Made by a program: the position numbers and the translations under genes. From Camelus dromedarius (lineage: Eukaryota), in assembly GCF_036321535.1 (NCBI RefSeq), contig NC_087472.1:90770001-90834000 (forward strand): DNA of 64,000 bases, given 5' to 3'. A model generated the notes under the pieces. That model did no database searches. It was given only the letters and a program-made list of their open reading frames with translations, and was not told where the DNA came from. Of the stretch, positions 4,147 through 62,449 are shown piece after piece. Position 1 is the stretch's first letter; each line of letters opens with the position of its first letter.

Positions 4147-4243
4147 TTTTTTTTTTTTTTTTTTAATGGAAGTACTGCGGGTTGAACCCAGGACCTCATG
4201 CATGTTAAGCATGCGCTTTCCCACTGGGCTATTACCCTTCCCC
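4147..4243 (-). mobile_element. tRNA-Ala-derived SINE (Vic-1-like)
   Basis: Reverse complement is GGGGAAGGGTAATAGCCCAGTGGGAAAGCGCATGCTTAACATGCATGAGGTCCTGGGTTCAACCC followed by poly(A). It has A and B boxes, and tgctgcatt occurs on both flanks (4136 and 4248) as a likely target-site duplication. Confidence 0.85.
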
Positions 4244-5948: not shown

Positions 5949-6293
<345 letters not shown>

Positions 6294-14479: not shown

Positions 14480-14603
14480 GGGGGGAATAGCTCAGTGGTA
14501 GAGCATGTGCTTAGCATGCACAAGGTCCTGAGTTCAATCCCCAGTACCTCCATTAAAAAATACATAAATAAATAAACCTGGTTATCTCCCCCCTCCAAAA
14601 AAA
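14480..14603 (+). mobile_element. tRNA-Ala-derived SINE (Vic-1-like) inserted in the L1 A-tail
   Basis: GGGGGGAATAGCTCAGTGGTAGAGCATGTGCTTAGCATGCACAAGGTCCTGAGTTCAATCCCCAGTACCTCC, then an AT-rich AATAAA segment, a C-rich segment and an A tail. Confidence 0.88.
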
Positions 14604-19300: not shown

Positions 19301-21424
19301 GTTGTGTGTGTGTATCACCATAGACATCTAGGGTGATTTTGCATGTACAAAGAATTGGACTTCTCCTGGTCAAGCTGCCTTCGGATACTATTTTTGCCAT
19401 GACATTGCTGAAAACGCCAGTGCATAGCATTGACAGCCCTTTTCCCCCATAGTAATGTAAACATATATCTGAGAAATACATTTTCATATTAACCAGCTCT
19501 TTTGTGGGACCAAATCGTGTAACATGAGCTATGTGCTAATGAGGATTGAGAATCTCATAGGCTTTTCTGTGTCTTTTTTCCCCTCTTTTTGCAACCTCAA
19601 TTTCTATTAACTTGCACCTCTCAGTCCATGTAGCTCATATATGCCGTAGCATCTAGCAGTAGGAAGGAGGACATGTAATGTCAAAAAGAAGGGGGAAAGG
19701 AGGCAATCAAGGGAGATGCGAGTATGCACTTAGCACAGTGCTTTTTGAGTATTCACTTGTATCTTCATGTAGCTCTCCAGCTTAGAATTCAGTTCAAGAG
19801 TTGGTACCTGGGCTTTGTCTCAAGTAGGCCTTGTTTACGTATGAGAGCCTCTAACGCAGACAAGTAAAAGATTCAAAAGATTTTGGAGATCAGCTTGTGT
19901 GTTCCCATAGGAAATCATTTTGGTCCACCCTTTTTAAGACTACTTTAAGCATACATATTTTAGTATTAAAATAATAGATAATCTTGAGCTGTTTCCTTAA
20001 CCTCTTTGAGCCTTTTTTCATCTGTAACATGAGGTTAAACAGATTATCTCAAGAGCTGCTTATCCCCCCCCAGGTTTCTTTGATTGTATGCTAAATGTTA
20101 CACATGGAAAAGGCAGAAGGGGATATGGATTACTGTATTTATTTCACAGCTTGGTCCTTATCAGCCAAGTCTTACCTGATCTTCTAGGTAGCAGTGCTTG
20201 TAGCAGAGATACAAGGTACAGAAAACAGTCTTGTATATACAGTGTGGCCTTCCACACGAGACCAGCTGTTCTCTGACTAGAAGTAGCACAGACTAAGAAC
20301 AAGATGTGAAAAAACATTGTGCGAAGCCTCATATAAATGATCCCTTGTGTCCCTACACTATAGTGTCCTCAGCAACTCAAAGGTAAAACACAAGGTTCTC
20401 GTGTCTGAGAGGATCAAACTGCCACCTTCCTTCTGTTTTATTTGTTACATGCAGGTTTCATACAGTTTTATAGCAGATTTTTTTTATCACTCATTTGATT
20501 TTCATAAAAATTGGGATTGTTTGGAAGAAGAGTCATTAATATTCTTTACAACTTGTTCTTGTTCCTCCTTTTATGTTCGTTGCTAGTGCACACTTCTCTC
20601 TTATGTAAAATATTCCACTGATGCCCTTGGTAGATTTAGAGGTTGTTAAAGAAATCGTAATAACAGCTCAGGGAACAGTCGGGAACTGCCTGTCCTATAC
20701 TGTCTGACCCTGGCCAGCCATTCTCCTTGTAGTTCTAAATCTTTGTGTACAGACAGTAATTCACAAACTGTTTTGATCAATTTAAATTCAGCAAATCTTT
20801 CCAAACACTAGGGCTTTTTACAATCAGGGCCAGAAAAGTTGGCTTGTCAGCTATTAATGCCATAACCTATTAACAATGGCGGCAATATTGAAATGATTAT
20901 TTGGATTTGTGAAGGGAACATTTTACTAGTGAAAACAGCAGATGAAAATGGCCAGGAAGAAGAGATTAACCTTTTTAAAAATCTGTGGTATGTCCCCAGT
21001 GTTTTCCACAAATTTACCTGTTTCTGTCAGTAAGAATGTTCGGAAATTCTATTCATGAATCTGAATGCATGCAATAGTTATATATTTAGATACTGTTTTT
21101 ATTCTAAATGGGCAGGAACTCTACTAAATAAAATGAAAACATACACTCATATGTGCACACACACAGACACTAACACCAACACCCACACTTTTGTACCAGC
21201 TGACTGCCTTAACCTTGCTTGGAATAATTATTTGCCATGATTAAATTAGTTGCTATTTGTCCTAGCATACATTGCATAGAGTTTCTTTTTGAGAAGCAAC
21301 CTGATTTCAAATTGGGGTCTAAGATTTTAGCATGTTCCCTTGTGACTTATAGTTTGGACTTTTAATTTATTAGTCCTTTTTGGTTCCTCTATCCACAATA
21401 TATAAACATATTTAGCTTAAAATG

Positions 21425-42324: not shown

Positions 42325-42483
42325 AGATGATGAACATTTGTTAATCCAGCATTACTGCCAAAGTTTGAACCAGGACTCCCCCCTGAGCCAGCCTCGTAGT
42401 CCTGCCCAGATCTTGATTTCCTTAGAGAGTGAGGAAAGAGGGGAGCTAGAGAGAATCCTAGCAGATCTTGAGGAAGAAAACAG
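42325..42483 (+). CDS. DMD: Dystrophin exon 74 (159 bp), syntrophin-binding region and start of coiled coil
   Basis: tttccag|AGATGATG...AAACAG|gtgagt. Encodes [53 protein letters not shown]. Exon 75 was not found in the window, so the remainder is intron 74. Confidence 0.97.
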
Positions 42484-44100: not shown

Positions 44101-47100
44101 AACCTAAAACTACAGGGAGGATGTCACATGAGTACCATCCAGGAGGTAATATGGAACATTCAGTTGGTTTTATTGGTAACATTATTTTTGGCCTTATTTG
44201 TAAGACTGGCAATGAGTATAATGGTAGGTAAAACCTTTCCCTTTACTTTATTAATAATCATCATTAGGTTCATTTATGTTAAATCTTTCAATATTTTAAA
44301 GGTCAGTCAAATAGGAAGAAAAAGCTGGGCTTGGCATTAGAAGTAAAATTTGATGTTACCCAGGAATAAAAATAGATTTGTAATATCTAATTGTTGCTGT
44401 TGTATAATATGTCTTCTTACCTCATTGGTCAAGAGTTCTGTCTTATTATTAGCATGCTTCCCTTCCATACCGTGACAGCCAGGCCAAGTGTTGGTGCAGA
44501 GTACTGAAGCTACCATTTATATGTATTTCATCATTTTCAGGGCACTTGAATGCATTTTGGGTCATTTAATCTTCCTAAAAGTTCTGTATGGAAGATGGAT
44601 GGAAGAATGCAGGTTCAGAGAGGTTCAAATGGTTTGACCCAGATTTCACATTCGCCAGTGGCAGAACCGAATTCAAATCCAGATTTTCTGACTCTAAATA
44701 GCCAACTCAACCTTGCAGCAGAGCATAAAGAAGAGTCATTCTATGTAAAAATCATTTACATGAAATTGTGCATTCTTTATAAATATCATTTATGTAGAAC
44801 TGTGGCACATTCCATGGAAGGTACCTTAACTTGAGGGAATAATTTTAGGACCAGACATGAATAAACCAGTCCATCTATGTGTGGTACAGTGATAACCACT
44901 TTACCCTGAAAGATGTCCAAGATGTCAAGAATGAGATGGTTTATTCTCTGAAAGAAAAAATAAATTACACCAGGGCTGCGTAAAGGTCCAAAATGAAGAA
45001 CCTGCTGTTAATGAAAATCTTTCTGTAAGTTATCTTGACCCTCAAGTAAAGGTCAGGATGACCTTCCTTCTTTCTCTGTCTACTTTATCACATTTTCACT
45101 TCCTCTCAAATCCCAAAGAAATATCTCTGCAGAGCTCCCCTCCTGGAAGTAGCCGGTCTGCTTCCCTTTGCTCTTCCTCTCCTGTTGTCTTGCATTTCTT
45201 CTCAAAGAGCTTCAGAGCCATAGCTTTGCCTTCATGGTCCTTGAATTCAGTGTTGCTTAAGGAGCCTTTAGTTCACCATTTCCTGTCTTTCCGCTGAGAG
45301 AATCCATGGGAGGTCATTAGATGCACCGCCCTCAGTGCCTGCCAAGCTGGCTGTATTTCCCAAGTCAGATGGGCTACATAATATGACAACTCCAAGCATG
45401 CTTTTAGAGAAAACGGGGAAGAATATTTAAAATTGGGAGTGTCCCATGTCCTTCGGACATGTACTTACTATATCTGTGTATTTTGTGTTCCTTTATTCTG
45501 TAGGAAGAACTTGTCTCCAAATGACACTTAGCAAAGGAAAGAGGCTTGGAGATCACAATTCCTGACCAGACATCTTATTGAATTCTGTTATTCTTATTCA
45601 TGACCCCTCCCCACCATCCCCTTGAAAACAGGAAGTGGCTAATTAGGAAGTGTCTCAGGGGTGTCTTATCTCTGTCTTTAGAATTCCATTTCTCCCAATT
45701 GTTGCATGGAGCATTCAATAAATATTTGTTGAATAAGTTAATGAATAAATGAATTGAAATGAAGCTGAATTTATTTTCCTTGTAGCACTCATGCATGTAC
45801 TTTTGGCTGAAATTCTTTTTACAACCTAATTTCATAGAGAAAAGCCTTTTGAAAGCTTTTCTTCTGCTTGCTTTTCAGAATACGTCCCTGTTACAAACTT
45901 CTTTGATTAGCGCCAAGCATTGCTTTGTCATAAATTTAGAACGTTCAAAATTCATTTTCTAAATCCTAAGCCCTGCGTGTCTCCCCCCCACTGGCATTCT
46001 CTGATTCTTGGCTTATGCCACAAAGATAAGGCGGAAGCTCTGAGCAAAAGCTTAGAATTTTCTCAATAGTGTCTCTCATAAATTTGAGTGACTAGTGACT
46101 TAGACAATCTTTGACGTTTCACTTCTGCATAGTGTCTCACCCTCATACCACAGATAACTGATTCACCTGTTTGGTAGACCAGTTGGATGTTGAGAATTTG
46201 CTCCATTGTGTATCCTTGGCGTTGCAAAAGTTTTCTTTTTTCCTGCCTAGATTAAAGCCTACAATCTCCTGACTTAAATCTGTAGTGGCACCTTATGACG
46301 TATTTTTCTCTGCACTGTCTAAATGAACTCAGACTTGCTCTGAAATTCTATGTACGACCCTAACAATGAAAAGGTACCCTTTATGAGAGACAAAAACCCA
46401 TTCTCATTCTGCTGCCTGCACATCAAATTCATTAGGTTGCTCCCAAGTCTAAACGGAGGGTAAATGCTAACCTGATCCGCTGTGAAGCGTAAAGTTAATT
46501 CTAGTTGTTAGGAGATGTAACATGACAACGGGGGACTCTAGGCTCTTAGTACCTACTCAGTACCTTTCATGTGTCTTTTTTTGGGTGACCAGTCACGATG
46601 CAGCCTCAGTCTGAGTTTCCTCTTGCTCCTTTTCATTCCTCCAGTGGTTATACAGATCGTTAATGTTACGGTCAGAGAAGTTCTAGATCAGTTACTTGTA
46701 CCACTGAGTTAAACTAGCTGGAGATCGTGATCCTGTTGCTTTGCCTTGTAAATGATGGGTGACTGAGCCTGGGGCTGGTGGTTTTCAGTCTTCACAGTCT
46801 CAGGACGTCTTTATTCCGTGTTCCTTCCTTAGGTCTTCGTATGAGTCTCAAATGGTGGTGAGGAGATGGCCAAGAGGAAGGGAAGCTGAAGGGGGTCAGG
46901 AGTGGGCGTTCCAAGCAGTAAGGAGCATAAACAGGGGTGTCAGGGAGGAGCAGCAGCGCATGATTGGGAAACCGCAAGCCATGTGTGACTTCTGTAACAG
47001 GGCAAGAAGCGGGAGGAGATGAGACCAGGCAGGTGGGGAAGGACACGGTGCCATGCTGCGGCTCCTCACCTGGTACAGGGAGCCACTCCTGGGTGCCAGC

Positions 47101-48424
47101 CAGCAGTCATGCTGTTGGATTTACACTTCGATGCGTCACTCGGGCAGCTGTGTTGGGAGTGAGCGTGAAAAGCACGATCCAGGAAGAAGGAAGTCAAACT
47201 GGGCATGAGTGTGGAAGCCCAGGAAAGAGATGGTAAGGGCCTAAAGGAAGGTTGTAGAAATGGGGAGGATGGGCTGAATCTGAGTGCTGTTTTAGGGGAG
47301 GGGCTGAGCTGTTTGGCTGCTTCCGTGGGTCTGGGGAGGGGAGGCACCAGTCCCAGTTCCGGCCCGTGCTTGGCGAGACGGTGGTTGCTGGCAGCGGGGA
47401 CCGACGATGCGGGAGGAGTAGGGGCAGGTTGGTTCTTTCGCTCAGCCGTGTTGATAGAGGGCCCTCCTGAAGGGTCGAGTAGCTGGAAGGTGGTGAATGG
47501 GCTACAGGAGACGGTGAGTTTGAGGCGCCGGTGACTCAGCCACGTACACGTGTCTGACAGTGAGAAGGGGAGCTGTGGAGCTTGCGGGACAGGTGTGGGC
47601 CAGAGAGGACAGAGCTGTGAGGCACCAGCTCACCAATGAAGTTGAAACTGAGAGTGAATTTATCTCCCCAGGGAGCGCGTGGCTGATGGAGGGCACTGGG
47701 CCTGGGAGAACTCTGGAAGATGCAAACATTAAAATGTTTATTTAGTTACTTTGATCCTTTAATCCACACAGAGTATGAGATATCTGAAGGATTCGGAAGG
47801 CATATGGAGAACCGTGAGCCTCTCTCCAGCCCTGTCCCCTGGCTGTGGTGCTCCCAGCTCTGGAGCCCAGCCACCACCTTTTCTGGCTTCTCATGTACCC
47901 TTTCAAGGATATTCTCCACGTATGCAGATATTTACACATGTTTGTGGGTTTGGGGATTATTTCACACAGTGCTGTGTAGTATTCCCACTGGTCTTCTGGT
48001 GGTACTTAAAGATCCCTGATTTCTTTCCATGTGCTGGAGGAATATGCCAGAAAAAGAGGGGAGGAGAGCATGGGAGTGGTAGGAGCAGCTTCCCAGAGGA
48101 GGCAGGAGGGAGAGGGGCAGCAGGGCACAGGAGGAGGCATGGTTTTGAGTGGGAGAAGGGCCCCCTGAGAAAATAGCATTGTAGGTGAGGAACTCAGGGT
48201 AGGGAAGGGGGGCCAGGAAGATAACACTGAATGTTAACTTTCCAATAGACATCCTTGGTAATTAGTACAGAAACAGATTCTGACAGCTGGTCTGTACATG
48301 GCTATTAAGTTGGATTAGGGGGAAAAGAGGAGTATACAAGAAATGCAATGAAACGGGGCCTTCATGTCACTTGGCAGTTTGAGCCCCCAAGCAAAGGGCC
48401 GCAGCGCCTTTTTATTTTTATTTC

Positions 48425-48915
48425 TTTATTTCATTTTTTAGTAAGGAGAGACTTTATTTGAAAGGATTATTGCATGTGGGGAGAGGGACTATTGCCATAG
48501 GGAGCATGCAAGTGTGTAAAGAGTTAGGCAAAAAGTGGTTTTCTTTCACAGAGAGGAGTGACAAAGCTGGAGGCTCTTTTGCCCTGAGCCCAGTCAGCTC
48601 TCGGGAGGGCCGGCATCCTGGGCCAGGCTGAGAGTGGGCCAAAGTTCAGAGGCCCGGAGGAAGGAGGGATGCTTAGCCACAGTTTGATTAACAAGCATTT
48701 TGTCCAGTTGATCAGTGGGAATGAAACAGTTCAGGTAATCCTTTATTAGGCAAAGGATGGGAATTAGTAGGATTCGTGTCTAGCCTTGTCTTCGGTCAGC
48801 AGTGGGGCATCCTTGAGCGTTACCTTAGTCATTTGGGGAAGGATGGTTTTTTGTTGTAATCTTTTTTTCCAGGACATGACAGGGAGGGGGATTTCTCCAC
48901 CCTTGCTCTTTTCAG
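48425..48915. mobile_element. Probable solo LTR
   Basis: ~490 bp with antisense poly(A)-signal-like gactttattt near one end and LTR-like composition; family not identified. Confidence 0.35.
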
Positions 48916-49809
48916 GTAATTTTCCACACTGTCGATGATAAAACGTCCAGGACCCAAAGTCACTCGATGCAGAGCCTTTTTAGATAAAGGGAGCTAGTTT
49001 CCCCCCAGACCACCAGGCTCTTTCATGGCAAGAGAAGCCACTGTATGGAGGGAAGCGGAAGGGCCTACCCATTGCATTTAATAAGCTGTGCATGAGGCAA
49101 GCGCCTCAGCTCTCCCCAGGCAGGGACGGCACTTACTCGGGCTGGGGTCACCATGTTTCAGAGGCTCAGTTTCTAACTAACCAATCCGATACTTAGATCT
49201 CCTTCGGTCTATCCAGAGTTAATCACAGCTGGAGGGGACCAGTTCATCCTATCCAATTCATGGATGTAAATAGATTACCCAGAATGGCAATTTATTTCCC
49301 CCTTTATCCAAATTCTCCCTCTTTTTAACTGTCTTGTTATACTAAGTGTATTTATGTTGCATTAAATCTTTTTGGGGCAACAGCGAGAGGTTTAAGTACA
49401 AATAGTAAATCTATTTAGATGGGGAATGTATATATTTTTTAAAGACTGGAGTTGTCACTCCATTCTAGAGTCCTCTGTCTTAGATGTCTTGGAGATGAAA
49501 ACCAAAATAAAATTGTCCGCTGAGCCTGGATCTTGGCATAGGAGATTGGATAGTTATGAAGACTACTTCATATCACAGGGAAACCAGAGTACCCCTCTAA
49601 TGAGAATAATATTCACAACTTACTGGTACAACTGCCATCTTCCTAGAATAGGCTGGATAAAAGCTGAAATTCTTAAAATCCAGTTTCCCTTTTTAGATCT
49701 TCCATGAAGACCCTCATCCTCCTCTTGGCTTTTATTACCAGACCATCCTGCTATAATAGAATTGACTGTACTGTTAAGTTTCCTTAGTTACTTTCCAGGC
49801 CTGAGGATA

Positions 49810-50640
49810 TCATTCCATTCACTTGAACAGATAATTAGTGAATGCTTAACAGGTTTTTCAACCTGCCAGGAGTATATAAAGGAACAAGCCTTAGTTCTTA
49901 CCCTCCTGGAGCTCAAAATTTAATAAAAAGGCATTAAAATATAAAGAACTAATTAGAACCCAGTGTTACAAGTGATCGAGGGGCACAGAGGTGAAGGATT
50001 AATTCTGTGTGAGGGATCGAAGAGACTTTAACAAAGAGAGTTGAAGATAAAGATTGAATAGGAGTTTTCCAGGCTGCGAGAGTGGAGGGTAAGGATGAGC
50101 TTTCCAGACTGCTGGGGCAGCGAGCAATGTGGGGCCAGAGCACAAGATGAAAGGATCAAGAGAGTAGTGGTGTGGTAGGTGCAGTCCCACTGTTTAAATG
50201 GCTTCATGTGTCAGACAAAGGAGTTTGGATTTTATTTTATAAGCAGTTGATCAGTGAAGGTTTTTTGAGGTGGGGATGATTGAGAAAAATAATTACAGGC
50301 AGGGAGCTAAAGCCATGGAGATTGGTAGAAGGAAAGTGGAATCATTCATTGGAAGATGGACAGGTTCTGAACTAAGAATATCTTAGGCAAGTGAAGAAGG
50401 AATGAAGAAACGGGAAGGTCACTGAATGAATGAGGCCAGGGGAGATGGGAAAGGGATGAACTGCGTGTTACGAAATTGTTTAATGAGGGAACTGGGAAAT
50501 AATCATTAAAAAACAAAACAACATAGAACACACAAGAAAAGCTACTGATTAGCCAAGGTCAATGGATAGAGAAAAAGAACTATGTATTAGGCATACTGAG
50601 TTCTGTTTGCCCAAGGAGATTCAAGTGGAAATGTCCTATA
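49810..50640. mobile_element. L2 LINE fragment
   Basis: cattccattcact...ccctcctggagctca...aggagtttggattttattt...caagtggaaatgtcc are L2 motifs. Confidence 0.65.

Positions 50641-54655: not shown

Positions 54656-54724
<69 letters not shown>
54656..54724. repeat. (TA)n microsatellite, ~34 units
   Basis: Directly visible perfect TA run. Confidence 0.95.
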
Positions 54725-54728
<4 letters not shown>

Positions 54729-57700
54729 TTCTGTCAAGCTCAATACGTCTTTCTTTTGGTAAGAAGCTTTCAGCACACCCGAGATTCCAAATCTAAGAAG
54801 TACAGAATATATAGAGAAAGAAGTCATAACAATTATGAACGCTTAGAGCGGGCTGGGCCTGGTTCTCACCAAGTTGTTCGTGTGGAATACAGAGCACAGT
54901 GGCTCACCGATCCTACTGATGGGATGAGTGTGGAAGTCGGTTGTCTGGCTTCAGCAAGTGACAGAGCCTAGCTGTCAGTCAAGGTCTTTCTGACTCCAAA
55001 ACCATGCTCTCAAACCCTATTCTAATTATCGCCTCAGCCATGGGTGGTAGAAGGCACCAAAAGGGCAGTGTGCCAAAAAGAAATTCTTAATTTTTCTGTA
55101 CATGCTTCAGCATCACCTTTAAAGCGCAGATATCACTGGAAGAAATGGTACATTATTATAAAATCCCAGTAAGGTTTATTCAGTAGGAAAGGGGTTGGAA
55201 ATAAAGAGCTCGGAATGCATTAAAAGAGGACAATATTAAGAGACAAGGATTAGAGACAGGAGCCTGGGGGTTCCTGCCATTTTTTACTATTTTGCTTAAG
55301 GCAGACCTAAAATATGCATACTTTTACTTCCCACCCTGTGAGCATCTCCTTAATTAACAATGGGAGTGCCAAGGCATATTAATGTCTCTTTCCATCTAGT
55401 TTAGGGGTATTTTTGACTGTGTTAGATACAATTTTACAGTATTGCTTTAAATATTTTAATTATAATTGGAAAAGGCGCTGTGCAATTTCCAGTTTTTTAA
55501 ATACCTCATGCTTGTGGAATTTGTCTTCCTCTTTTTTTTAGAAAGTGCTAATTTCCTAGATTTATAGTTGCTGTAATAGTTCTGTATGATTTACTACATT
55601 TGCCTGAATCCAGATTGGTGGATATGATTTAGCTGTTTTTAATACTGTATCAGGCTAAAGCTGGATTTCTCTGGGTCTCATCTTTTTAGATGCAAACCTT
55701 TGTAGTTGTTCCCACTTTATGAAATAGATCCTGTGTGCGTGTTCATGCTTTAATATACAGTTTAATACATAAGACTATTAAGAAGACCTTGATCACTGGA
55801 AAGTGATCCTCATACAACTATATAATTACATGCAGTAGGGACGTTTCATTAAAAGAGTAGAAAACCTACAATGAAAACACATGACATCTGTAAATTAAGA
55901 GGATTACAGAAAGATTGAAGTAATGTTCTTTATTATAGCTAGCATGTAGGTAGTTGTGACTACTGGCCGGGCCAGATGCTGTCATGTTTTCAGCAGGTAG
56001 AGGTAAGGCCAATTTGAGTCATCTCTTATATCCATTAGCTAGTTGAGAAAGATGAGCGTAACTTTGTATCTGGACAACCACGCTTATACGTGTGATGACA
56101 CAAAATGAATCAGATAGAGCTACATAGTTGTAGAATGGAGGGATTTTTGTAAGCTCTATGGAGAATAACAAATTAATAATGAATGGGAGACTTCTTCTTT
56201 AGCAAGAGTGGTTACAGGAAGAAATTGTGGCGGCAGACGCCATGTGAAGTGAATTTGAATTAGTGTTCTTTAGGGAGCTACCAGAGAAATATGATTTACA
56301 AGATAATCAAGGACATAAATATATTCTCCGTGGAGTAATTGTCTGATCCCTGACATATATTCCTGTGTATTGATATGACTCCACAAATACATTCCAACAG
56401 TTAGAGAATCAACAGGGGTGAAATGTACATGTGTAACTTCAAGAATAGCAAAATATATATTGGTAGCAATATAAATTGACAGCCGACTGTTATAATGAGC
56501 AGATTGTGCACTTGTGGTTAAGGTTTAAAACCACTCACCTTGGAACAGTGTTAAGTATCTCACTGATCTTTTGTGGGAATGATATCCCCTATGTGCTTTA
56601 TAAATATTGCATCCCAAAAAACTAGCATTATGATATACTTGAAAAGGTCTTGACATAGATGTTTTTAAATATAAGGAGACAACTTAATTCATAAGGGCTA
56701 AATGGCTTCGTTTTGTAACCCCTAACACAGCTCTATAACGATGACCACATGTATTAGGAAATGTTTAGTAAACGTTATCTCTAGTTCAACCCTTTGAACA
56801 TTCATTTTTCTTGATAATCTTCATGAAAATTTATAAATACCTGTAAAAGAGAATTTAGACTTAAAGAACTTTGTATTTTACTTGGTTTCTGGCCGAGATA
56901 TTTCTTTTGTGCTATTTCTGGTGCTATTTCTGGCTTTTCAGACCTTTAACCTAACAGCTTGTCCCACCTGAGAGCTTCAGGAGGAAAAACTAGTTCCTCA
57001 AAATCAAGTTGGTTATTGAGCATAATAGAAAGTGTATGTTTGTCACATATTTGTTTAGGAAACGGCACTTGTTTGGCTCATTGAACCCTGTTTTGGTAAA
57101 TTGAGATTTGAATGAGTACTAAGGGAACCTTGACCAGACATCTACATAATCAACATGTCCTGGTAGGCTTCTGATGAAGATACCGTTAGTTTTCAATTTA
57201 AGGCATCTTCTTCTGCTTCTGCCGTTTATCCAGTAGTATGTAATATATGGAGTGGAAAAAAAATGAGAACACCACAGCTGAGCTGCAAAACAAGATGAAC
57301 ATCTCTGTGGGCCAGAAACGGGGAGGTATGGCCAACAGGACAGGGTGAGCAGTGTGTGGGGCTACCTTGGTGGACTGTCAACTCCTGCTCTAGTAACAGG
57401 GATTAAATTCTTCTCACCAGGTGGGGACACAGAGCCAGGAATTTGAAATCAGGGCCCCACAAAAACACATCTGGAGAGACACATACTAACCCACTTATAC
57501 TTGAAAGGAAAATGAAAAAAAAAAAACAATTTGGACTGTGGCAGGGGACTACAGCTCATGTGTAGCCATGGACCTAATGAGTAGAGCCTGGAAAAGAAGT
57601 GAAGAGTGTGGTGGTTGAGAAGGGGAGCATCACAGCCTTGAAACAAGCAGCTGAACCACGCTGCCTGGAGATGAAATTAGCAGTCAGTGCCTTCGTATCG

Positions 57701-57853
57701 CTCAATGCAGGAGCTGCAAATTACCAAGATAAGACGTAGCTCCAGACTAGAGGCCCTGCTCCGAGTGGGAACAGCCATAAAAGCACTTGACAGAAGCAAG
57801 TTCAGAAGGAGAGGGAAACAGGAAACACACCCTATCCCTTTCAGAATGTGCCT

Positions 57854-57985
57854 GAGGGAGGGAGGGAAGAGGCGAGGAAGAAAGAAAGGAAAGAGGGAGG
57901 GAGGGAGGGAGGGAGGAGGCGAGGAAGGAAGAAAGGAGGGAGGGAGGGAGGGAGGGAGAAAGGAGGGAGGAAGGGAAGAGGCGAT
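57854..57985 (+). repeat. Purine-rich (GGAG/GGAA)n low-complexity tract with three GAGGCGA motifs
   Basis: Directly visible. Confidence 0.9.
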
Positions 57986-57990
57986 CGCCT

Positions 57991-60886
57991 GCCTCTCTGC
58001 CTCTCTGCCTCTCTGCCTCTCTGCCTCTCTGCCTCTCTGCCTCTCTGCCTCTCTGCCTCTCTGCCTCTCTGCCTCTCTGCCTCTCTGCCTCTCTGCCTCT
58101 CTGCCTCTCTGCCTCTCTGCCTCTCTGCCTCTCTGCCTCTCTGCCTCTCTGCCTCTCTGCCTCTCTGCCTCTCTGCCTCTCTGCCTCTCTGCCTCTCTGC
58201 CTCTCTGCCTCTCTGCCTCTCTGCCTCTCTGCCTCTCTGCCTCTCTGCCTCTCTGCCTCTCTGCCTCTCTGCCTCTCTGCCTCTCTGCCTCTCTGCCTCT
58301 CTGCCTCTCTGCCTCTCTGCCTCTCTGCCTCTCTGCCTCTCTGCCTCTCTGCCTCTCTGCCTCTCTGCCTCTCTGCCTCTCTGCCTCTCTGCCTCTCTGC
58401 CTCTCTGCCTCTCTGCCTCTCTGCCTCTCTGCCTCTCTGCCTCTCTGCCTCTCTGCCTCTCTGCCTCTCTGCCTCTCTGCCTCTCTGCCTCTCTGCCTCT
58501 CTGCCTCTCTGCCTCTCTGCCTCTCTGCCTCTCTGCCTCTCTGCCTCTCTGCCTCTCTGCCTCTCTGCCTCTCTGCCTCTCTGCCTCTCTGCCTCTCTGC
58601 CTCTCTGCCTCTCTGCCTCTCTGCCTCTCTGCCTCTCTGCCTCTCTGCCTCTCTGCCTCTCTGCCTCTCTGCCTCTCTGCCTCTCTGCCTCTCTGCCTCT
58701 CTGCCTCTCTGCCTCTCTGCCTCTCTGCCTCTCTGCCTCTCTGCCTCTCTGCCTCTCTGCCTCTCTGCCTCTCTGCCTCTCTGCCTCTCTGCCTCTCTGC
58801 CTCTCTGCCTCTCTGCCTCTCTGCCTCTCTGCCTCTCTGCCTCTCTGCCTCTCTGCCTCTCTGCCTCTCTGCCTCTCTGCCTCTCTGCCTCTCTGCCTCT
58901 CTGCCTCTCTGCCTCTCTGCCTCTCTGCCTCTCTGCCTCTCTGCCTCTCTGCCTCTCTGCCTCTCTGCCTCTCTGCCTCTCTGCCTCTCTGCCTCTCTGC
59001 CTCTCTGCCTCTCTGCCTCTCTGCCTCTCTGCCTCTCTGCCTCTCTGCCTCTCTGCCTCTCTGCCTCTCTGCCTCTCTGCCTCTCTGCCTCTCTGCCTCT
59101 CTGCCTCTCTGCCTCTCTGCCTCTCTGCCTCTCTGCCTCTCTGCCTCTCTGCCTCTCTGCCTCTCTGCCTCTCTGCCTCTCTGCCTCTCTGCCTCTCTGC
59201 CTCTCTGCCTCTCTGCCTCTCTGCCTCTCTGCCTCTCTGCCTCTCTGCCTCTCTGCCTCTCTGCCTCTCTGCCTCTCTGCCTCTCTGCCTCTCTGCCTCT
59301 CTGCCTCTCTGCCTCTCTGCCTCTCTGCCTCTCTGCCTCTCTGCCTCTCTGCCTCTCTGCCTCTCTGCCTCTCTGCCTCTCTGCCTCTCTGCCTCTCTGC
59401 CTCTCTGCCTCTCTGCCTCTCTGCCTCTCTGCCTCTCTGCCTCTCTGCCTCTCTGCCTCTCTGCCTCTCTGCCTCTCTGCCTCTCTGCCTCTCTGCCTCT
59501 CTGCCTCTCTGCCTCTCTGCCTCTCTGCCTCTCTGCCTCTCTGCCTCTCTGCCTCTCTGCCTCTCTGCCTCTCTGCCTCTCTGCCTCTCTGCCTCTCTGC
59601 CTCTCTGCCTCTCTGCCTCTCTGCCTCTCTGCCTCTCTGCCTCTCTGCCTCTCTGCCTCTCTGCCTCTCTGCCTCTCTGCCTCTCTGCCTCTCTGCCTCT
59701 CTGCCTCTCTGCCTCTCTGCCTCTCTGCCTCTCTGCCTCTCTGCCTCTCTGCCTCTCTGCCTCTCTGCCTCTCTGCCTCTCTGCCTCTCTGCCTCTCTGC
59801 CTCTCTGCCTCTCTGCCTCTCTGCCTCTCTGCCTCTCTGCCTCTCTGCCTCTCTGCCTCTCTGCCTCTCTGCCTCTCTGCCTCTCTGCCTCTCTGCCTCT
59901 CTGCCTCTCTGCCTCTCTGCCTCTCTGCCTCTCTGCCTCTCTGCCTCTCTGCCTCTCTGCCTCTCTGCCTCTCTGCCTCTCTGCCTCTCTGCCTCTCTGC
60001 CTCTCTGCCTCTCTGCCTCTCTGCCTCTCTGCCTCTCTGCCTCTCTGCCTCTCTGCCTCTCTGCCTCTCTGCCTCTCTGCCTCTCTGCCTCTCTGCCTCT
60101 CTGCCTCTCTGCCTCTCTGCCTCTCTGCCTCTCTGCCTCTCTGCCTCTCTGCCTCTCTGCCTCTCTGCCTCTCTGCCTCTCTGCCTCTCTGCCTCTCTGC
60201 CTCTCTGCCTCTCTGCCTCTCTGCCTCTCTGCCTCTCTGCCTCTCTGCCTCTCTGCCTCTCTGCCTCTCTGCCTCTCTGCCTCTCTGCCTCTCTGCCTCT
60301 CTGCCTCTCTGCCTCTCTGCCTCTCTGCCTCTCTGCCTCTCTGCCTCTCTGCCTCTCTGCCTCTCTGCCTCTCTGCCTCTCTGCCTCTCTGCCTCTCTGC
60401 CTCTCTGCCTCTCTGCCTCTCTGCCTCTCTGCCTCTCTGCCTCTCTGCCTCTCTGCCTCTCTGCCTCTCTGCCTCTCTGCCTCTCTGCCTCTCTGCCTCT
60501 CTGCCTCTCTGCCTCTCTGCCTCTCTGCCTCTCTGCCTCTCTGCCTCTCTGCCTCTCTGCCTCTCTGCCTCTCTGCCTCTCTGCCTCTCTGCCTCTCTGC
60601 CTCTCTGCCTCTCTGCCTCTCTGCCTCTCTGCCTCTCTGCCTCTCTGCCTCTCTGCCTCTCTGCCTCTCTGCCTCTCTGCCTCTCTGCCTCTCTGCCTCT
60701 CTGCCTCTCTGCCTCTCTGCCTCTCTGCCTCTCTGCCTCTCTGCCTCTCTGCCTCTCTGCCTCTCTGCCTCTCTGCCTCTCTGCCTCTCTGCCTCTCTGC
60801 CTCTCTGCCTCTCTGCCTCTCTGCCTCTCTGCCTCTCTGCCTCTCTGCCTCTCTGCCTCTCTGCCTCTCTGCCTCTCTGCCTCTCT
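57991..60886 (+). repeat. (GCCTCTCT)n octamer tandem array, 362 units, 2896 bp
   Basis: The 8-bp period holds without visible variants; phase at 57991 and 60871 differs by exactly 360 units; partial GCCT units flank both ends. Confidence 0.97.
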
Positions 60887-60887
60887 G

Positions 60888-61189
60888 CCTGCCTCGAACC
60901 TACAACCTCCTGCTTACTAGTCCTAGCTCTCTACCCCTAACCTACAGGCTCTCACTAGCTACCTGAGTTTCCCCTCACTCACCTTTATCTCCTCAACTAA
61001 CAAACGGTGCTGAATTCCTAGTGCCTCAGCCTGGGTTGCACCTGAGGAACCAGGGACCCAGCATCCTCCTTCAGCTGTGGGAGATAAACCTGACTTGACT
61101 CGGGGAAACTGAGGTAGCTAGCGAGAGCCTGTAGCTCAGGGGCAGAGAGCATGGCTGGCAAGCAGGAGGTCCTAGGTTCAAGCCGCAGG
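60888..61189. other. ~300 bp imperfect inverted repeat (arms 60888-61029 and 61042-61189, 12-nt loop)
   Basis: Left arm gaacctacaacctcctgctt...ctacaggctctcactagctacctgagtttcccc...gtgcctcag aligns end to end with the reverse complement of the right arm gaacctaggacctcctgctt...ctacaggctctcgctagctacctcagtttcccc...gttcctcag. Confidence 0.92.
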
Positions 61190-61211
61190 GGAAGGACAGA
61201 GGAGAGTTTTT
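61132..61211 (+). promoter_or_regulatory. tRNA-Ala-like Pol III internal promoter (A box 61132-61142, B box 61175-61184) with TTTTT terminator 61207-61211
   Basis: TAGCTCAGGGG...GGTTCAAGCC. Ungapped 44/57 identity (hand count) to the head of the SINE at 4147-4243. Confidence 0.65.
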
Positions 61212-61559
61212 GCTGGAAGCAGAAAGCAAATTTCATTTTTACATGAGTGCAGTAAGTCCTACATACCTTCCTAAGTTGCTGTCTATACGTATGAACTTTC
61301 CCAAAAGGTCCCAATTAACTTATGGGCCTGATTTCCCCAACAGACTTCTCTGGACTTGATACACACTGATTCACCATTAGGATCAAAAGTTACATCTCAC
61401 CCATCCTTTTGCTCAGTCACAATGATCACAGGTAGACGGTTGGTGAATGCATAATTCTGGCCACTGTTTGACTTGACTTGCCATAATGCCACGTAGACCA
61501 GAACAGCCATCTGCTAGGTTTTCAGGTTGTAATTCTGCCCGTGGGTGTAGAGGTATGCC

Positions 61560-62415
61560 CGATAGTAATACCCAAAACACAAAGACTTAAGACAGTCCCT
61601 CCAAGTTGACTATCCAAAGTTGAATTAAGCCTAGATGAAAATAAAATGATAGAAGAATACAACCAAAATTGTAAGGATGTTTAAGATCCTCTAAGACATA
61701 CTTAAGGAAATACTATTTATTAAGATAACAAGAAATTAAGAAACAAAGCAATGAAGAACAGATGCATCTGAAAGCCATTTTTGGAAATAAGAACTATAAT
61801 CAGTGAAGCTACTGCACTCAAAGGACAAGATAAATTCTAGGCTGCACCCAGTCAAAGGAAATTAAAAGATGATTCTGAGGACTTTATATAATATTTAAAA
61901 AAACAGATAAACAGAAATCGGTAATAAAGAAAAATGGGGGAGTGACCACAAGGCTTGAAAATATACCTGGTAGAAGTTTCAGAAGAAGAGAATGGAGATG
62001 CAGAGAAGCAGTATGTGAAGCTGTAAGAGCTGAGAATCTTCCAGAACTGGAGTGATGTGAGCCTTTAAGGAAATGGTCTCCAGAGAGAAATTTTAAACAT
62101 CTGGGAAGGCCTGTGTAGAGCAATTGGTATTCTTTACAACTCAGCTTTGGGAAGCCCTGGCTGAGTTCAAATGTTATATTTTTCACAGGAAAACATAACA
62201 GAAATGCAGTGTGTTGTATATGCTTAAACCGTGGTTTCTAAACAAGGACACTTAGAAATAACTCAGTAAAGGAGAGCTGTGTGGAAGAACCTGACCCAGA
62301 GGAAGACCTCTCTAGAAAAGGTAGTCTCCTGTCAGTGACCCTGTGAAAAGCAGGCAGGAAGACAATAATCATTTGTTGTACTATCCTGAAGTCCATGTCT
62401 AAAGACACCGTTTTC

Positions 62416-62449
<34 letters not shown>

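Follow-up and report, generated by a model that had tools for sequence, protein, structure and literature searches.

How does a simple repeat of 2.9 kb come to stand, without one interruption, inside the dystrophin gene, and what, if anything, does it do there? The repeat in question lies in a 64-kb stretch of Camelus dromedarius DNA, the whole of which was analyzed and is called the window here. In the assembled sequence it consists of 362 consecutive copies of GCCTCTCT on the + strand (57991-60886). The perfect period-8 run is slightly longer (2902 bp), with no mismatch at a lag of 8, and TRF counts 362.8 copies with 100% matches and 0 indels. Read on the + strand, the run holds 1451 C, 1088 T, 363 G, and no A; on the - strand it is made of AGAG and AGGC tetramer pairs, flanked at either end by a lone AGGC (GCCT) tetramer. 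Given the composition of the window, the chance of such an array is about 10^-1690.

The array and its host intron

Nothing else in the window approaches the array in length. Next among the 14 TRF rows is a tract of 126 bp (57854-57979), and the perfect run second in length to the array is a (TA)34.5 of 69 bp (54656-54724), which shares its intron with the array and with an A31 at 62417-62447. Because the octamer makes no stop codon, all six frames are open across the array. These frames, one of which has an upstream Met (on +), are no evidence of translation, and a coding role was rejected.

Which gene, and which intron, houses the array? Ten DMD exons map to the + strand between 5968 and 42483, with lengths of, in order, 202, 86, 158, 167, 112, 137, 39, 66, 66, and 159 bp, and their spliced frame is free of stop codons. 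The frame at 5973-6173 is identical to the dystrophin chain 1eg3_A in 66 of 66 residues. We take these exons to be 65 to 74, the numbering being that of human DMD. The exon 75 peptide of dystrophin proteins has no tblastn match anywhere in the window, so the array lies in intron 74, 15.5 kb past exon 74 and with exon 75 more than 3.1 kb further on. An earlier, sequence-only reading had described an uninterrupted 362-unit repeat in 2896 bp, located inside DMD, 7/8 pyrimidine on one strand, and accompanied only by simple repeats below about 130 bp. All of this is borne out in the assembled sequence, the pyrimidine-rich strand being the + strand.

Table 1. Positions of the array, its flanking features, and the reference features used, in window coordinates
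Feature	Position	Strand	Basis or remark
tRNA-Ala-like SINE copy	4167-4239	-	ARAGORN tRNA call, A-rich tail, 9-bp target-site duplication
tRNA-Ala-like SINE copy	14481-14552	+	ARAGORN tRNA call, A-rich tail, Rfam tRNA 58.4 bits (above gathering)
DMD exon 74, last DMD exon of the window	42325-42483	+	Exon mapping; number presumed from human DMD
Imperfect (GAGG)n/GAAG purine tract with three AGGCGA copies	57854-57984	+	TRF rows 57854-57979, fold-back
Perfect 12-bp palindrome AGGCGATCGCCT	57979-57990		Purine strand flips here
Perfect octamer array	57989-60890	-	(AGAGAGGC)n on -, (GCCTCTCT)362 on +
Left arm of inverted duplication	60888-61038	-	Flank, then head with damaged A box and B-box-like GGTTCGAGGC, then array directly
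Right arm of inverted duplication	61039-61188	+	Same flank, better-kept tRNA-Ala-like head with A-box-like TAGCTCAG and B-box-like GGTTCAAGCC
Short purine tail of right arm, GCAGGGGAAGGACAGAGGAGAG, then TTTTT	61185-61211	+	Global alignment to array start on left arm

A sister copy and two fold-backs

What stands on either side of the array? The 300 bp to its right (60888-61188) form a single rod-like fold of -86.2 kcal/mol as DNA (z = -10.3), a stability that none of 100 shuffles reaches. The two arms of this hairpin are identical at 111 of 141 aligned bases, and either of them, followed outward from the center, opens with some 90 bp of flank, which gives way to a tRNA/SINE-like head, with the tails outermost. 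The A-box and B-box consensus sequences by which the heads were judged are those that we assume to be standard. The right arm, which also carries GGCAGAGAG at 61141 within its SINE-like head, is 76 to 77% identical to the SINE copies at 4167 and 14481 over 57 to 59 bp, a short similarity, and scores 17.8 bits against the Rfam tRNA model, under the gathering score of 29. A profile made from the two arms (nhmmer) recovers both SINE copies (E values of 2.5e-4 and 6e-3), with one more match below threshold, and finds no further copy of the arm-plus-flank unit in the window. The two SINE copies resemble a camelid tRNA-Ala SINE, presumably the one named Vic-1. A camelid tRNA-derived SINE goes unmentioned in the accessible portion of PMC6675863.

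The tail of the right arm is 22 nt long, degenerate, and purine rich, and the first run of at least four T residues (TTTTT) follows at 61207. At the aligned position the left arm reads AGGC AGGC and then (AGAG AGGC)n, that is, the array. The array therefore occupies the place of the left copy's tail, and the right copy shows what that tail may have looked like before expansion. As the alignment is short and of low complexity, it suggests the right-arm tail as a candidate for the pre-expansion seed. This relation had been missed in the sequence-only reading: the arrangement is suggestive of an array that is the expanded tail of one inverted SINE-like arm, held between two fold-backs.

The other fold-back is on the left. 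There, the purine tract has its purines on the + strand, opposite to the purine strand of the array, and tract and array fold back on each other at -76.6 kcal/mol, compared with -57.1 +/- 6.8 kcal/mol when the tract is shuffled (0 of 100 shuffles equally stable). The palindrome at this junction is notable by position only, because 14 palindromes of at least 12 bp are listed in the window (pure TA runs excluded).

Age of the array and of the arms

How old is this arrangement? With a generation of 5 years and a rate of 1.1e-8 mutations per site in each generation (PMC7305198, as excerpted), the first substitution in 2896 bp is expected after about 157,000 years, with a 95% bound of about 470,000 years. 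The purity of the array dates its last homogenization only, to less than about 470,000 years ago. Between the arms there are 0.25 substitutions per site; a clock would convert these into 57 million years, which is too high, since the changes in the arms are lopsided. An old duplication next to a pure array thus points to late expansion or to steady turnover. Very recent expansion, homogenization, and smoothing by the assembler had been offered in the sequence-only reading to account for the purity. Recent expansion or homogenization fits best and smoothing is still in play, but "very recent" is too strong for a span of 157,000 to 470,000 years.

The lopsidedness takes the form of a loss of C from the - strand of the left arm: C is present in the right arm only at 19 positions and in the left arm only at 3 (p = 0.0009). 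When the differences between the heads are polarized by the two SINE copies, 9 are derived on the left, 1 is derived on the right, and 3 are ambiguous (p = 0.02). Faster change in the arm that touches the array is compatible with long-standing instability, though the link is uncertain. A human population study reports no repeat-induced mutagenesis beyond the borders of the motif (10.1101/2022.02.08.479604, in the part available), which argues against the array as the cause of the C loss. Compared with the right arm, 12 of the changes are C to T and 7 are C to G, a high C-to-G share. APOBEC was considered as the cause of the left-arm changes and is not claimed, a 5' T being present at only 4 of the 19 positions.

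Origin of the array

How, then, might the array have grown? We favor, with moderate confidence, a real, probably neutral, and hypermutable expanded simple tandem repeat that arose from the purine-rich tail of the SINE-like segment. A local inverted duplication, visible in the sequence, produced two outward-reading tRNA-Ala-like SINE heads plus flank, and slippage would then have duplicated the AGGC/AGAG tetramer pair in the left tail. Against this reading, the array alone offers no strong structure that could drive expansion, its single strands folding poorly (0.0 and -9.8 kcal/mol per 240 nt of DNA versus -91.8 for CTG). The two flanking fold-backs (tract with array on the left, the 300-bp hairpin on the right) could favor stalling of the replication fork and template-switch repair, giving big jumps in length; an array bracketed by two fold-back junctions would be the pattern expected of template switching. 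Constant gain and loss of units may purge interruptions, so that an old locus would keep a young-looking array. Long short tandem repeats are described as shifting to an expansion bias and to changes that perfect interruptions (10.1101/2022.02.08.479604, in the part available). By analogy, the array should be polymorphic in length. The purine tract on the left is an alternative seed. No description of the locus was found in the literature among the matches listed; repeat tables published as supplements to camel genomes could list one.

Could the locus exist, yet owe its length or its purity to assembly? Gap fillers can loop round a repeat until a gap of estimated size is closed, and polishing of the consensus could have erased interruptions. 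We consider this unlikely, though it deserves more weight than the other rivals. In human repeat expansions, 1e-3 to 1e-2 synthesis errors occur per inserted base (10.1101/2022.02.08.479604, in the part available), so several errors would be predicted in 2.9 kb unless they were purged, and the array has no variant in 2902 bp. All 35 metagenome loci that carry the motif have 13 pure units or fewer, though short-read contigs shorten such arrays. Against an assembly product, the window contains no N and ten intact exons, as an accurate long-read assembly would presumably give, both ends of the array join cleanly in tetramer register, and, even if nothing purged interruptions, the array would be expected to stay pure for about 157,000 years. 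Camel assemblies built from HiFi reads exist (PMC12905343, as excerpted), and long alleles of a single short motif do occur in real reads, as with the 586 ACAGG copies at human RFC1 (PMC10502081, as excerpted). Words from the flank at 60891-62400 (155 sampled) are found at a fraction of 0.86 to 0.94 in 19 of the 24 listed runs, from 7 studies, while 5 small runs hold none; this supports the hairpin and the right flank, to which the sampled words are confined, and the run richest in them may come from the source sample itself. The array is a feature of the assembly, probably of the animal too, and most likely neutral.

Two further rivals concern what the array belongs to. It might belong to a family of (GGCAGAGA)n arrays scattered through the camelid genome, many of them from SINE tails and mutually homogenized, as in the B1-derived family of mouse, which serves as precedent (PMC9659126, as excerpted). 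The octamer does adjoin a SINE-like head and once sits inside one (61141), but 11-mers of the unit are absent elsewhere in the 64-kb window on either strand, and the two intact SINE copies have A-rich tails. The arm holds about 90 bp of non-SINE flank, which points to a local event, and a family of this kind is improbable in our view. The metagenome contigs offer 35 loci with a six-unit pattern, of 6 to 13 pure units and none like the window's flanks, so they show the motif only as a generic simple repeat; the head-to-array junction pattern has 0 matches in these contigs. On two of them (L006 and L020), (GCCTCTCT)10-13 adjoins AAACCCT telomere-like repeats, apparently in subtelomeric DNA of unrelated eukaryotes. 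Very improbable is an undescribed mobile or structured-RNA element in which palindrome, array, and hairpin were inserted as a unit. Its architecture is indeed symmetric, with two fold-backs and tRNA-like heads, and a Pol III transcript from the left head could span the whole array, there being no run of at least four T residues for 3111 nt on the strand of that head. What makes such an element unlikely is the lack of a target-site duplication and of an Rfam match at gathering. At all four candidate boundary pairs the longest shared word is 6 to 7 bp, a length that 31 to 49% of random pairs also reach, but a 9-bp duplication does flank the control, the SINE at 4167; and 0 of 32 Rfam matches in 57400-61500 reach gathering. 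Moreover, the composite has no second copy in the window or the metagenome contigs, and the A box of the left head is damaged. A structured RNA family was rejected, since 31 of the 32 Rfam matches are generic hits to the left fold-back, for the most part by miRNA models, and the remaining one is a weak tRNA hit.

Possible action on DMD

A further rival has the array act on DMD, whether at the DNA level (triplex or R-loop) or through its RNA (binding of MBNL or PTBP1, cryptic splicing), so that expression of the 3' exons is tuned or impaired. We rate this as quite improbable. As for DNA, H-DNA depends on mirror symmetry in a homopurine repeat, transcription meets an obstacle if the non-template strand is the purine-rich one, and purine RNA forms much the stronger hybrids with DNA (PMC11667243, as excerpted). 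The purine strand of the array, AGAGAGGC, has one C every 8 nt, and its best mirror registers match at 6/8 and 5/8, in blocks of 5, so the array is not a homopurine/homopyrimidine mirror repeat. Its G4Hunter score is 0.62, compared with 1.67 to 1.8 for AGAGGG and AAGGG. DMD is on the + strand, where the array is pyrimidine rich; the purine strand is therefore the template, not the non-template strand, and the nascent RNA is pyrimidine rich. The sequence-only reading had held that triplexes or R-loops are favored and had suggested that they could impede transcription or replication across the 3' end of DMD. Both ideas lose ground: such structures are possible in a weak form but not favored, and pyrimidine RNA is the unfavorable orientation.

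What about the RNA? YGCY is the binding site of MBNL, DM2 sets in at 75 intronic CCTG units, and UC repeats sequester PTBP1 (PMC11874975, as excerpted). The sense intronic RNA of the array reiterates 363 YGCY motifs, all of them UGCC, over its 2.9 kb (elsewhere they number 9.7 per kb) and adds two UC motifs per unit, about 720 in all. It is also nearly unstructured (-8.7 kcal/mol per 240 nt versus -55.6 for CCUG), and the pyrimidine zone free of AG extends for 2940 nt, the next longest being 147 nt. Exons 71 and 78 of DMD are MBNL1-dependent; the motif that MBNL favors, however, is UGCU, whereas the array offers UGCC only (PMC13044900, as excerpted). A strong cryptic exon after the array is unsupported: on a rough 10-site matrix, the first AGs past it score -2.0, -6.9, and -0.1, compared with 0.0 to 14.8 (leave-one-out) for the ten true acceptors. 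Should the array be an expanded SINE-like tail, as we prefer, its effect on DMD would be little or none, because it is 15.5 kb from exon 74, has the orientation least suited to a triplex or R-loop, and creates no strong splice site.

One speculation, for which we see a similarly slight chance, goes further. Judging by its motifs, the array could give camels a natural, length-variable RNA sponge in dystrophin, with some 360 unstructured UGCC and 720 UC sites per pre-mRNA between the MBNL1-dependent exons 71 and 78. Allele length might then tune DMD 3' splicing in cis or titrate MBNL1 and PTBP1 in muscle, as a tolerated large-animal counterpart of DM2. The terminator-less Pol III head could add a purine RNA of 3.1 kb whose R-loop would keep the array unstable and would explain the C loss in the adjacent arm. 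Pol III read-through from the left head across the array is conceivable, although the A box of that head is damaged.

Likeness to known repeats

An ESTR is a kilobase homogeneous array of a short unit, of about 4 to 6 bp in mouse. Mouse units include GGCA, GGGCA, and GGCAGA, a series that the camel unit GGCAGAGA extends, and the (GGCAGA)n family from SINE B1 is named MMS10. The camel array, 2902 bp long with 0 mismatches, shares with mouse ESTRs a kilobase homogeneous array with a GGCA core within a retroelement remnant; evidence for its own retroelement origin is of moderate strength (a short similarity, and an array abutting the 3' end of a SINE-like head). It differs in its unit, which at 8 bp, a tetramer pair, falls outside the 4- to 6-bp range, in its tRNA-Ala-like SINE tail in place of B1 or MaLR, and in its location in one arm of an inverted duplication. 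In mouse, a GAGGCA dimer within SINE B1 gave rise to (GGCAGA)n, and MaLR LTRs gave rise to Ms6-hm and Hm-2 (PMC9659126 and PMC6947457, as excerpted). Mouse ESTR loci, for which no function is known, mutate at 2 to 7% per allele in each generation (PMC3419097, as excerpted). The camel array resembles them in length, purity, and origin; membership among the ESTRs is not claimed.

How does the array compare with repeats that cause disease? With the (CCTG)n of DM2 in intron 1 of CNBP it shares an intronic position, a pyrimidine-rich sense strand, one YGCY per unit, and a muscle-expressed host gene, and the GCCT tetramers at both ends are a further likeness. It has half the YGCY density, however, its RNA folds far less, as mentioned, and no phenotype is known. 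With FRDA (GAA)n, CANVAS (AAGGG)n in an Alu tail, XDP (CCCTCT)n in an SVA, and the 2.5-kb pyrimidine tract of PKD1, which is similar in size, it shares an intronic, purine/pyrimidine-skewed, and retroelement-tied character (PMC11667243, as excerpted). Unlike the repeats that form H-DNA, it is not homopurine, has no mirror repeat (6/8 at best), places its purine strand as the DMD template, and has a low G4Hunter score.

Why does this matter? If reads confirm the array, it is an X-linked kilobase array of a pure short unit in livestock, with an unexpanded sister about 300 bp away, and so a rare before-and-after pair for the way in which retroelement tails turn into giant simple repeats. It would also be a likely hypervariable marker and a natural test of how well a muscle gene tolerates hundreds of intronic YGCY/UC sites, which bears on what separates intronic expansions that are pathogenic from those that are not. 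Should reads fail to confirm the array, the locus becomes a caution about the purity of long repeats in polished assemblies.

Other observations in the window

The SINE copy at 14481-14552, which scores above the Rfam gathering threshold, is a likely source of false tRNA annotation. Within intron 74, the region 46001-50000 is GC richer (GC of 0.50 at 46001-48000) and G skewed and holds several incidental open frames of 110 to 187 aa. DNA of intron 67 at 10836-11039 matches, at 97% of 68 residues, a peptide in P0064, a dystrophin entry of Camelus dromedarius, the two mismatches falling at the segment end, and the DNA at 20914-20988 in the same intron matches another segment of that entry at 25 of 25 residues; both segments are probably mispredicted exons.
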